Shown here in pieces: positions 53,911-56,589 of a DNA stretch of 64,000 nt (position 1 is its first letter; each line of letters opens with the position of its first letter). The translations under genes and the position numbers were made by a program. This stretch comes from Acidobacteriota bacterium. GTDB lineage: Bacteria > Acidobacteriota > Vicinamibacteria > Vicinamibacterales > UBA2999. Below the pieces are notes generated by a model that had not been told where the DNA came from, did not search any database, and worked only from the letters and a program-made list of their open reading frames with translations. The stretch spans positions 2,111 to 66,110 of the forward strand of contig JAQBVV010000001.1 of NCBI GenBank assembly GCA_027622905.1. Reading direction: 5' to 3'.

Positions 53911-53927
53911 CTGGCATGTCGCTTGCT
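53911..53927 (+). promoter_or_regulatory. Sigma-54 (-24/-12) promoter
   Basis: cTGGCATgtcgcTTGCTt compared with the consensus YTGGCACG-N4-TTGCW has correct spacing and one mismatch. It lies about 25 nt upstream of the DUF2934 gene ATG (53952) and its AAGGAG SD. Confidence 0.65.
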
Positions 53928-53951
53928 TTTCCGATCGGGTAAGGAGCGGTC

Positions 53952-54257
53952 ATGGCATTGGAGAAATCGAAGACATCAGCGAAGAGCACACGCGCTCGCA
54001 AGACTGCGGCGCCACCTCGGACCAAGGTCACAGCATCTGGCAGCACGCCGCCTCGCCGGCGGACGAGCGCGGCGCCCCGGAGTCCCGCAGGACGCAGCCG
54101 GGGCCGAGGCGCCTCGACCACTCGGACTCCGGAACCCACGGCACCGTCCGGTGGCGATATTGCCGTGCGTGCCTATTTCCTCTACCTCGAACGTGGCGCT
54201 GCGCACGGGAGCGCCCTGGAGGATTGGCTCCAGGCAGAACACGAACTGCATACCTGA
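53952..54257 (+). CDS. DUF2934-domain protein with basic, Pro/Arg/Thr-rich disordered N-terminus
   Basis: 101-aa ORF. The C-terminus IAVRAYFLYLERGAAHGSALEDWLQAEHEL matches the DUF2934 signature. Confidence 0.75.
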   Translation: MALEKSKTSAKSTRARKTAAPPRTKVTASGSTPPRRRTSAAPRSPAGRSRGRGASTTRTPEPTAPSGGDIAVRAYFLYLERGAAHGSALEDWLQAEHELHT

Positions 54258-54489
54258 CGGGCGCGGCTCGTCCGTCCCGACGCTCCCCATCAGCGCAGCG
54301 ATCCGAGTCCACCCCTCTACCAACCCCAGGAGTGCACATTGAGCAGTATCCAACCACCTAACACCTCGCACGCCGGATTCGCGGGTCGCGCCGCCAGCAC
54401 GGGGGACCAGGCGGGTCATCGCGGCTCGGCTGCGCGCGTCGGTGCCATCGCCTCGGTAACCGGGTACATGCCGACCAGCCCGCCGCTCG

Positions 54490-56589
54490 ATGCCGGCGCG
54501 GGAGCTGTTCGCGATGAACGTGTTCAGCAAGCGCGTGATGAAGGACCGTCTTCCGAAGCCGGTCTACAGATCGCTCCTGAAGACCATCGAGTCGGGCACG
54601 ACGCTCGATGCCTCGGTCGCCGATATCGTGGCGTCCGCCATGAAGGACTGGGCTATCGAGAAGGGGGCCACCCACTATGCCCATGTGTTCTTTCCGCTGA
54701 CCGGCGCGACTGCCGAAAAGCACGACTGCTTCCTCGCGCCGGACGGGGACGGGGGAGCGGTGACCGAGTTCAGCGGCAGCCAGCTGATCCAGGGAGAGCC
54801 GGATGGGTCGAGTTTCCCGACTGGTGGTATCCGCCAGACGTTTGAAGCGCGCGGATACACGATATGGGACGTGACCAGCCCGGCCTACATCCTCGAGAAT
54901 CCGAACGGGACAACCCTATGTATTCCCACGGCCTTGGTCTCGTGGACCGGAGAAGCTCTCGACAAGAAGACGCCGGTGCTGCGTTCAATGCAGGCGCTCA
55001 ACCAGCAGGCGCAGCGCATTCTTCGCCTGTTCGGACACGACGACGGTGCGTTCGTCGCATCGACCGCGGGTCCAGGGCAGGAATACTTCCTTGTCGACCG
55101 TCACTTCTACTTCAGTCGTCCGGATCTGGTGACGGCGGGTCGGACCCTGTTCGGGGCCAAGCCGCCGAAGGGACAGGAGTTCGACGACCATTACTTCGGT
55201 GCGATTCCGGAACGGGTGCTGGCGTTCATGCTCGAAACCGAGCGGGAGCTGTTCAAGCTGGGCATCCCGGTCAAGACGCGCCACAACGAGGTGGCGCCAG
55301 GCCAGTACGAGATCGCGCCGGTCTTCGAGTCGTCAAATCTCGCCACGGACCACCAGCAGCTGATGATGATCACGCTGCGCCGCGTGGCCGAAAAATACGG
55401 CATGGCGTGCCTCATGCACGAGAAGCCGTTTGCCGGCGTCAACGGTTCCGGTAAGCACGTCAACTGGTCGATGGGGAGCCGATCGCAGGGCAACCTCCTC
55501 GACCCGGGTGATACGCCGCATGCCAATGCCCAGTTCCTCGTGTTCTGTGCGGCGGTGATCCGCGCGGTCCATCGGCATCAAGGCCTGTTGCGCGCCGTCG
55601 TGGCGTCGGCGGGCAACGACCATCGCCTGGGGGCCAACGAAGCGCCGCCGGCGATCATGTCCGTCTTTCTCGGCGACCAGCTCACCGATGTCTTCGAGCA
55701 GATCAAGGCTGGCGGCGCGAGTTCCTCGATCGAACGAAGCACGCTGACCGTGGGCGTCGACGTGCTGCCCCCGCTGCCAAAGGATGCCGGCGACCGCAAC
55801 CGCACCAGTCCGTTCGCCTTCACCGGCAATCGGTTCGAGTTCCGGGCCGTGGGCGCGGGCCAGTCCATCGCCGGACCGCTGGTGGCGATGAACACGATCG
55901 TGGCCGAATCGATCGACTACTGTGCGACCAGGCTCGAAGAGGCGACCAGCGGAAACGCCGGTGCGCTGCACGGCGCGATCCAGAGCCTGCTGACCGAGAT
56001 CATCAACGAGGCGTCGCCCGTCATCTTCAACGGCGACGGATACTCGCCCGAGTGGCACGATGAAGCGGCTGCGCGGGGCTTGTTGAACCTGAAGACCTCG
56101 CCGGAGGCCCTGCCCTATCTCGGGAAGCCGGAGGTGGGCGCGCTGTTCAAGAAGTACGGCGTCCTGTCGGAACGCGAGCTGGACAGTCGCCTTGAAACGT
56201 ACCTGGAGCAGTACTGCAAGACGATCATCGTCGAAGCGAAGCTGACCGCCGAGATCGCCAGAACCATGATCTTTCCAGCCGCGATTCGCTATCAGAACGA
56301 GCTCGCCTCGACCTGCGCCAACCTGAAGCTGATCGGCTACGAGTTCGACACCGACACGCTCGACACGGTCACGACACTGGTGAAGTCACTGCAGGACAGC
56401 CTGGGCGTTCTCGAGCGGACAGCGGACGCCAGCGGGGACGGCGACCTGGCGGAGGAGGCCCGGCACTGCGGAGAGATCGTGTTGCCGGCGATGAACACGG
56501 TGCGCGAGTTCGCCGACGCGCTGGAGGGCGTCGGCGCCGACGACCTCTGGCCGCTGCCCACCTACCAGGAGATGTTGTTCATCAAGTAG
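54490..56589 (+). CDS. glnN: Glutamine synthetase type III
   Basis: 699-aa [73 protein letters not shown] and [12 protein letters not shown] are typical of GSIII. Confidence 0.9.

Follow-up and report, generated by a model that had tools for sequence, protein, structure and literature searches.

Does one sigma-54-dependent promoter serve both a small gene of the DUF2934 family and the glutamine synthetase gene that follows it, and, if so, do the two products belong together? This question is raised by a locus in a stretch of 64,000 nucleotides (nt) from a soil Acidobacteriota bacterium (contig JAQBVV010000001.1, positions 2,111 to 66,110), the whole of which is called the window below. An earlier note on this DNA had proposed that sigma-54 (RpoN) controls a DUF2934 gene together with glnN, the gene for type III glutamine synthetase (GSIII), and that the DUF2934 protein may be functionally linked to GSIII. 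In our analysis, the first part stood as plausible, on account of the promoter motif, a spacer free of terminators between the genes and a strong enrichment of such motifs upstream of glnN in relatives, while the functional link did not stand. With moderate confidence, we favor the reading that the region 53498-56695 is a self-contained nitrogen-assimilation cassette, which would be transcribed as one unit from a sigma-54 promoter and in which DUF2934 is not a conserved partner of the enzyme. The features on which the question turns are the following.

53912-53927, plus strand: sigma-54-type −24/−12 element TGGCATgtcgcTTGCT (assigned by motif match and spacing)
53941-53946, plus strand: Shine-Dalgarno sequence AAGGAG, 5 nt 5′ of the ATG at 53952
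53952-54257, plus strand: DUF2934 protein of 101 amino acids (aa) (Pfam PF11154, residues 70-100)
54490-56589, plus strand: main glnN (GSIII) reading frame (assigned by Pfam domains and PDB 3O6X)

The sigma-54-type element and its surroundings

The string cTGGCATgtcgcTTGCTt, given in the earlier note, was found in the window, and its 16-nt core, TGGCATGTCGCTTGCT, occupies 53912-53927 on the plus strand. The GG at 53913-14 and the GC at 53925-26 are 12 nt apart with 10 nt between them, which is the canonical −24/−12 spacing. When the element is compared with TGGCAC-N5-TTGCW, 10 of the 11 specified positions agree, the sole change being C to T (TGGCAT). Thus, the description of a near-consensus element with correctly spaced GG and GC was verified with one mismatch, and no other site in the 64 kb matches with at most one mismatch while keeping the GG and the GC. 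Its location shortly upstream of AAGGAG and the ATG of the 101-aa open reading frame (ORF) was also verified: the distances from the element are 13 nt to AAGGAG and 24 nt to the DUF2934 ATG. From the usual 12-nt distance to the −12 GC, transcription is predicted to start near 53938.

The same note saw no obvious promoter in the gap between the two genes, and our scans agree with it. Between 53500 and 54520, no further sigma-54-like site came closer to the consensus than four mismatches, and a sigma-70 promoter scan of 53300-56900 returned 0 sites, so that by these two scans the element is the only candidate promoter inside the inserted block described below. An Rfam scan of 53400-54700 for a glutamine riboswitch or another leader RNA gave nothing above noise. 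Upstream of the element, a repeat search revealed one further feature.

53753-53807, no strand assigned: three-copy CAGRAAT cluster, a candidate enhancer (upstream activating sequence)

This cluster consists of the tandem copies AGGACAGGAAT and AGAACAGGAAT and the inverted copy AACATTTCTGT, located at −155, −144 and −112 from the −24 element. The three copies occur within 55 nt, as compared with 0.25 copies per kb across the window. Since the distance is that usual for activator sites, we infer that the cluster is a candidate activator-binding enhancer.

Sigma-54 motifs upstream of glnN in relatives

The occurrence of the motif (at most one mismatch) was examined in 143 glnN loci of relatives, in the region from −450 to −100 counted from the alignment start. 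Sixteen motifs were found there on the sense strand and one on the antisense strand. The density upstream of glnN was 0.31 per kb, while the background, taken per strand from elsewhere in the same loci, was 0.007 per kb; this corresponds to an approximately 43-fold enrichment. In the relatives, the motifs precede the probable start codons of glnN by 42-290 nt, and the loci that carry them are labelled Planctomycetota, Gemmatimonadota, Desulfovibrionales and others. These sequence comparisons suggest that sigma-54 control recurs within this clade of glnN genes. The motif alone would be insufficient for a claim about a promoter in the window, and it is this enrichment that strengthens the promoter's credibility.

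Genes for activators, recognized by the GAFTGA and DLYYRL motifs, stood beside glnN in only 3 of 155 relatives' loci, and no synteny was found between the upstream region of the window and the glnN relatives. A literature search pairing glnN or GSIII with sigma-54 or RpoN returned no papers. In the closest glnN relative, L081 (glnN 88% identical), a histidine kinase with HAMP, HisKA and HATPase domains (154-1422) and, as a fragment of 131 aa, part of a sigma-54 interaction domain (2207-2599) are encoded directly upstream of glnN. The DNA between the kinase and the fragment is split over several frames, and it may be a decayed two-component activator. It was also seen that L115 and L118 (also L124) carry repeated AT-rich motifs, such as TTTCAAAAATGTAATCTATTT and AAAATTGTAATTT, approximately 60-120 nt 5′ of their sigma-54 motifs; these resemble activator binding sites and are unlike the CAGRAAT repeats of the window.

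The 5′ end of glnN

The assignment of the downstream ORF to GSIII was confirmed by three Pfam domains (GSIII_N, E 1.4e-73; Gln-synt_C, 1.9e-17; Gln-synt_C-ter, 1.6e-38) and by a match to the GSIII of Bacteroides fragilis (PDB 3O6X, E 1e-185, aligned chain residues 34-729). Scrutiny of the 5′ end, on the other hand, revealed a frameshift that the earlier note had missed. All of the approximately 150 glnN relatives, from genomes and metagenomes, share the N-terminal segment ARxAAIAAVTNYxPxxPPLNFxETPxxELFxANVF. The window also encodes this segment, from a TTG at 54339, out of frame with the rest of glnN, and no uninterrupted frame leads from it into the window glnN. When the DNA was aligned with that of L081, L082 and L008, the closest relatives that could be used, the start codons lined up and 11 nt proved to be deleted from the window at about 54490. 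The independently assembled ENA contig L180, which is 99.988% identical to the window over 8,076 nt without gaps, has the same deletion; the deletion is therefore not an artefact of one assembler. Two features are redefined as follows.

54258-54338, plus strand: spacer of 81 nt from the DUF2934 stop codon to the ancestral glnN start (fold z = -0.88)
54339-54489, plus strand: ancestral glnN 5′ coding segment with a TTG start and the Shine-Dalgarno sequence AGGAG at 54329-33 (identified by the relatives' conserved segment)

Accordingly, the gap of 233 nt that had been described before glnN was a misreading, because the 5′ segment of glnN starts at TTG 54339 in another frame: most of this gap is old coding sequence, and the true spacer is 81 nt. 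Neither a terminator nor an unusual structure was found in the spacer by folding or by a terminator scan.

As the 11-nt deletion shifts the frame, the ancestral start no longer yields the enzyme. Judging from the reading frames, an active enzyme must start at one of two candidate restart codons, ATG 54490 at the deletion junction or ATG 54514 with GGGAG 9 nt upstream, and it would lack about 50 N-terminal residues of its close relatives. Public gene callers start glnN at ATG 54514, giving a protein of 691 aa (P0128, which is recorded in Logan and ENA). Some distant GSIII proteins (L160, L143 and L157) are naturally short and begin just before "IFGxNVF"; a shortened GSIII could thus still work.

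The damaged 5′ end raises the alternative that the sigma-54 promoter serves DUF2934 only and that glnN is a frameshifted, decaying passenger for which read-through is irrelevant. We regard this as unlikely, though it deserves serious attention. The promoter, the Shine-Dalgarno sequence and the ATG are tightly packed before DUF2934, the deletion occurs in independent assemblies, and NCBI has a protein record for the DUF2934 protein and none for the window glnN. Nevertheless, the remaining 699 glnN codons are intact and 88% identical to L081, the natural GSIII proteins mentioned above start at the same point as the shortened form, and the sigma-54 motifs are a trait of the glnN clade. As for the DUF2934 genes, no such motif was found upstream of them at L161-L168 and L178-L179. 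In the closest DUF2934 homologue, P0002 on the 629-nt contig L169, the Met corresponding to Met1 of the window protein is preceded at a distance of 13 nt by CGGCACGGGAGTTGCT, which at first sight favors a promoter dedicated to DUF2934. However, transcription from this motif would give a leader of just some 3 nt, and the motif lies inside the ORF as called (from GTG 92). It also overlaps codons at L169 89-187, in frame with and just upstream of DUF2934, whose translation (...TPNFLASPARELL...) is weakly like PPLNFxxTPxxELF, the N-terminal linker of GSIII; the tblastn E values are 0.001-0.009, and the search space was very small. The L169 motif was considered as strong independent support and was downgraded for these reasons; it is ambiguous.

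The block as one insertion or deletion

Comparison with sister genomes placed all of the above features in one segment, which ends in a palindromic repeat.

53498-56695, plus strand: lineage-specific block of approximately 3.2 kb (delimited by blastn synteny with L172 and L173)
56595-56699, no strand assigned: interspersed palindromic repeat of approximately 105 nt (fold -50.9 kcal/mol, z = -4.23)

The block spans the region from the stop codon of a phosphofructokinase (PFK) gene to that of a convergent small gene, where L172 and L173 (PFK 90% identical) have 60 nt instead. When these two sister genomes are compared with the window by blastn, PFK maps to 52317-53498 and the next match is at 56701-56904. 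The gene order is shared on both sides: a QueG-like gene, tRNA-Ser and PFK upstream, and the small convergent gene, Crp, ferrochelatase, an M61 peptidase and an EVE-domain gene downstream. The two nearest sister genomes, L170 and L171 (PFK 93% and 92% identical), also do not have the block, and they have transposase genes nearby. Thus, the enhancer-like region, the promoter, DUF2934, glnN and the terminator repeat together form one insertion/deletion of approximately 3.2 kb; its site, which adjoins a tRNA-Ser gene, is plastic. Such an arrangement suits a transcription unit that is compact and self-sufficient. The synteny suggests that the block was recently gained in one Acidobacteria lineage, loss in the sisters being less likely, and it shows that the pairing of DUF2934 with glnN is an event of this one lineage.

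The repeat at 56595-56699, whose inverted ends are CTAGAGCG...CGCTCTAG, folds into two strong hairpins, and U-runs come after them. A terminator-like site is found at 56588-56604, and the repeat, which comes right after glnN, is likely to be the terminator of the unit. An Rfam scan of 56500-56800 gave no match for it. Four copies of this repeat are found in the 64 kb (56595-56699; 34011-34116 on the minus strand; 6520-6623; 23638-23741), each 93-96% identical to the consensus. Two of them start a few bases from a stop codon (those of glnN and an acetyl-CoA synthetase gene), and the repeat looks like a miniature mobile element that carries a terminator.

The favored mechanism and the points against it

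The following mechanism is favored. An enhancer-binding activator, encoded elsewhere, would bind the repeat cluster at 53753-53807 and open the complex of RNA polymerase and sigma-54 at 53912-53927, probably under nitrogen limitation. The transcript would start near 53938, run through DUF2934 and the terminator-free 81-nt spacer into glnN, and stop at the hairpin repeat 56595-56699. In this scheme, DUF2934 would be a locally recruited first cistron that is nitrogen-regulated as a result, and GSIII, if made at all, would be N-terminally shortened. Co-transcription with glnN is plausible because the spacer contains no terminator and no other candidate promoter exists in the block.

Several observations weigh against this mechanism. 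In 200 dinucleotide-preserving shuffles of the window, 1.05 ± 1.08 matches as good as the element were expected per 64 kb, and 62% of the shuffles had at least one. The leader is predicted to have no more than some 14 nt, among them the whole Shine-Dalgarno sequence. In L081, the relative with the closest glnN, no motif is present even when two mismatches are allowed. No gene for rpoN or for an activator (GAFTGA, Sigma54_activat) was found within the 64-kb window, and the presence of sigma-54 in the organism is assumed. The ACAGGAAT/CAGRAAT repeats do not appear as an enhancer common to the relatives, where their density is 0.58 vs 0.31 per kb, which is not significant. The consensus used in the sigma-70 scan is of the E. 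coli type and may not fit Acidobacteria. Finally, initiation at TTG 54339 would lead ribosomes into an out-of-frame ORF of 168 codons that extends across both restart codons, and glnN may be a decaying pseudogene.

The motif by itself is therefore statistically unremarkable, and its weight comes from position and comparison. Some of the points just listed, namely the shuffles, the lack of sigma-54 machinery in the window and the E. coli-type calibration of the promoter scan, would equally suit the explanation that the motif is a chance match and that DUF2934 and glnN are transcribed from unrecognized promoters of the sigma-70 family, located either within the DUF2934 ORF or in 53500-53950, where the AT content is higher. 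We consider this explanation rather improbable. In any given upstream stretch of 100 nt, only about 8e-4 matches are expected on the sense strand from the background rates; furthermore, the clade of the downstream gene shows the motif enrichment described above, and the repeat cluster is located at the usual enhancer distance.

The DUF2934 protein and its relation to GSIII

The protein had been described as having a basic, disordered N-terminus and a C-terminal DUF2934 domain, and this description proved correct. The Pfam match has an E value of 4.5e-12 and 45.8 bits against a cut-off of 22. Residues 1-66 are basic and rich in S, T, P and R, with an isoelectric point (pI) of 12.0 and a net charge of +13.5, while the helical part has a pI of 4.9. 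In an AlphaFold2 model built on a shallow alignment of seven sequences, residues 1-66 are disordered (predicted local distance difference test score of approximately 50 for residues 1-60) and helices are formed by residues 67-84 and 86-100; residues 67-100 are thus modelled as an acidic two-helix hairpin. NCBI MDA1183064.1, which belongs to an Acidobacteria metagenome-assembled genome, has exactly the same sequence; a look-up of the exact protein sequence gave no recorded source contig. No meaningful match was obtained when the protein and its model were compared with the PDB by sequence and by fold, and NCBIfam contains no model named for the DUF2934 protein or for GSIII of this type. A tblastn search of plasmids with the DUF2934 core gave no match, and a scan of viral contigs gave two unrelated DUF2934 loci, neither with a sigma-54 motif. 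The window protein shares with its homologues the invariant core I..RAY....R....G....DWLQAE. Its long tail rich in R, S, T and P, in contrast, was found besides only in P0002; the other homologues have a different N-terminal extension or none, and they adjoin CsbD or PFK, not glnN.

The relation between the two genes was examined from both sides. In 160 glnN loci (80 from genomes and 80 from metagenomes), searched with phmmer and with a custom hidden Markov model from seven homologues, no DUF2934 ORF was found within 3-4 kb of glnN. Conversely, no glnN was found beside the DUF2934 homologues at L161-L169, at L178-L179 and on the P0004 contig, the last of which was seen as a gene list only. The proposed co-occurrence, tested here as adjacency, thus failed in all 160 loci, and the closest sister genomes have neither gene. 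Among the homologues, P0006 adjoins CsbD, and P0003 and P0007 have the conserved order of a gene for an 84-aa protein, DUF2934 and a convergent PFK gene; in the gene list of P0004, the same 84-aa gene is directly upstream of DUF2934. In a rhizobium, a DUF2934 gene is induced along with CsbD, sigma-32 and a ferritin-like protein (PMC9100948), which is the only published mention of DUF2934 expression found.

The order of an 84-aa cysteine-rich protein, DUF2934 and convergent PFK is seen in L166 (2725-4580), L167 (159-1980) and L168 (561-1851), whose DUF2934 homologues are 61% identical in the domain. The PFK of L166 and L167 is 56% identical to that of the window, which also neighbors DUF2934. 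An ancestral adjacency of DUF2934 and PFK was considered on this basis and set aside; intermediate relatives do not have it.

These results bear on the proposal that the DUF2934 protein is a dedicated partner of GSIII, namely an inactivating-factor-like regulator or a chaperone that acts through its arginine-rich disordered tail. In its favor, the two genes, separated by 81 nt, seem to form a single transcription unit and arrived together in the same block, and the basic disordered tail bears a superficial likeness to cyanobacterial IF7. Against this, DUF2934 is absent from the vicinity of glnN in all the loci searched, the examined homologues neighbor CsbD or PFK, the rhizobial gene is listed among the induced genes with CsbD, sigma-32 and a ferritin-like protein, and neither the sequence nor the fold matches a solved structure. 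We consider such a partnership very improbable.

The inactivating-factor version of the proposal also has the wrong logic. Cyanobacterial inactivating factors act on type I glutamine synthetase (GSI), are expressed when nitrogen is plentiful, and are regulated oppositely to glutamine synthetase; a gene co-transcribed with the synthetase from a starvation promoter would therefore not behave as an inactivator. IF7 and IF17 (GifA and GifB) resemble the window protein in being small, partly basic and disordered proteins in genomes with a regulated glutamine synthetase. They differ in that their target is GSI, they are expressed under nitrogen excess, and they are not co-transcribed with the synthetase; moreover, the DUF2934 protein has no homology to anything solved and no conserved co-occurrence with glnN. 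A narrower form, in which the protein, recruited as the first cistron and induced by nitrogen starvation, would within this lineage target GSIII or its mRNA, likewise deserves very little credence. Adjacency is the only link between DUF2934 and glnN.

Neighboring genes

The tRNA-Ser(GCT) gene at 52113-52205 closely precedes PFK, and a second copy of its first 39 nt is found 4.2 kb farther upstream (47880-47918). The DNA between these copies, which includes a 503-aa ORF (49172-50683) and a MacB/ADOP-type permease ORF, is not found in L172 and L173 and looks like an integrated island. The permease (50763-52082, 51538-51897) looks truncated or frameshifted: the last approximately 100 residues of its long ORF look out of frame, and the typical C-terminus (...ARRAVRIDPVVALRHE) is found in another frame. 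It may be a second damaged gene nearby. In L170 (1-4965) and L171 (2559-5764), the PFK neighborhood is full of transposase and integrase genes, and in L171 a ferrochelatase fragment directly follows PFK; the site is a rearrangement hotspot.

Relation to known systems and implications

The locus resembles the sigma-54/NtrC-type promoters, such as enterobacterial glnAp2, in the −24 GG and −12 GC with canonical spacing, in the near-consensus flanks, in the location upstream of a glutamine synthetase gene, and in the repeated motifs 110-155 nt upstream, where activators usually bind. It differs from them in that the enzyme is GSIII (GlnN), not GSI, that an unrelated small gene lies between the promoter and the synthetase gene, and that the leader is very short. 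The window glnN product is a full-length homologue of B. fragilis GlnN from chain residue 34 onward and has the same three Pfam domains, whereas it differs from the GSIII of close relatives, whose conserved N-terminal segment is in frame, in that only a shortened protein is possible. Taken as a whole, the regulation proposed for the locus is of a familiar kind, and only some local details are odd.

A pairing found in one lineage, together with a damaged 5′ end of glnN, is a weak basis for general claims about DUF2934 and glutamine synthetase. If the DUF2934 protein did act on GSIII, this would be the first function for the DUF2934 family and the first dedicated protein partner of GSIII. If the promoter is active, nitrogen limitation would become an expression condition for one member of the uncharacterized DUF2934 family, and Acidobacteria and GSIII would join the classical scheme of nitrogen control by sigma-54. 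A useful and testable generalization is that glnN genes of Planctomycetota, Gemmatimonadota, Desulfovibrionales and other groups recurrently have sigma-54 motifs upstream; we found no discussion of this in the searchable literature.

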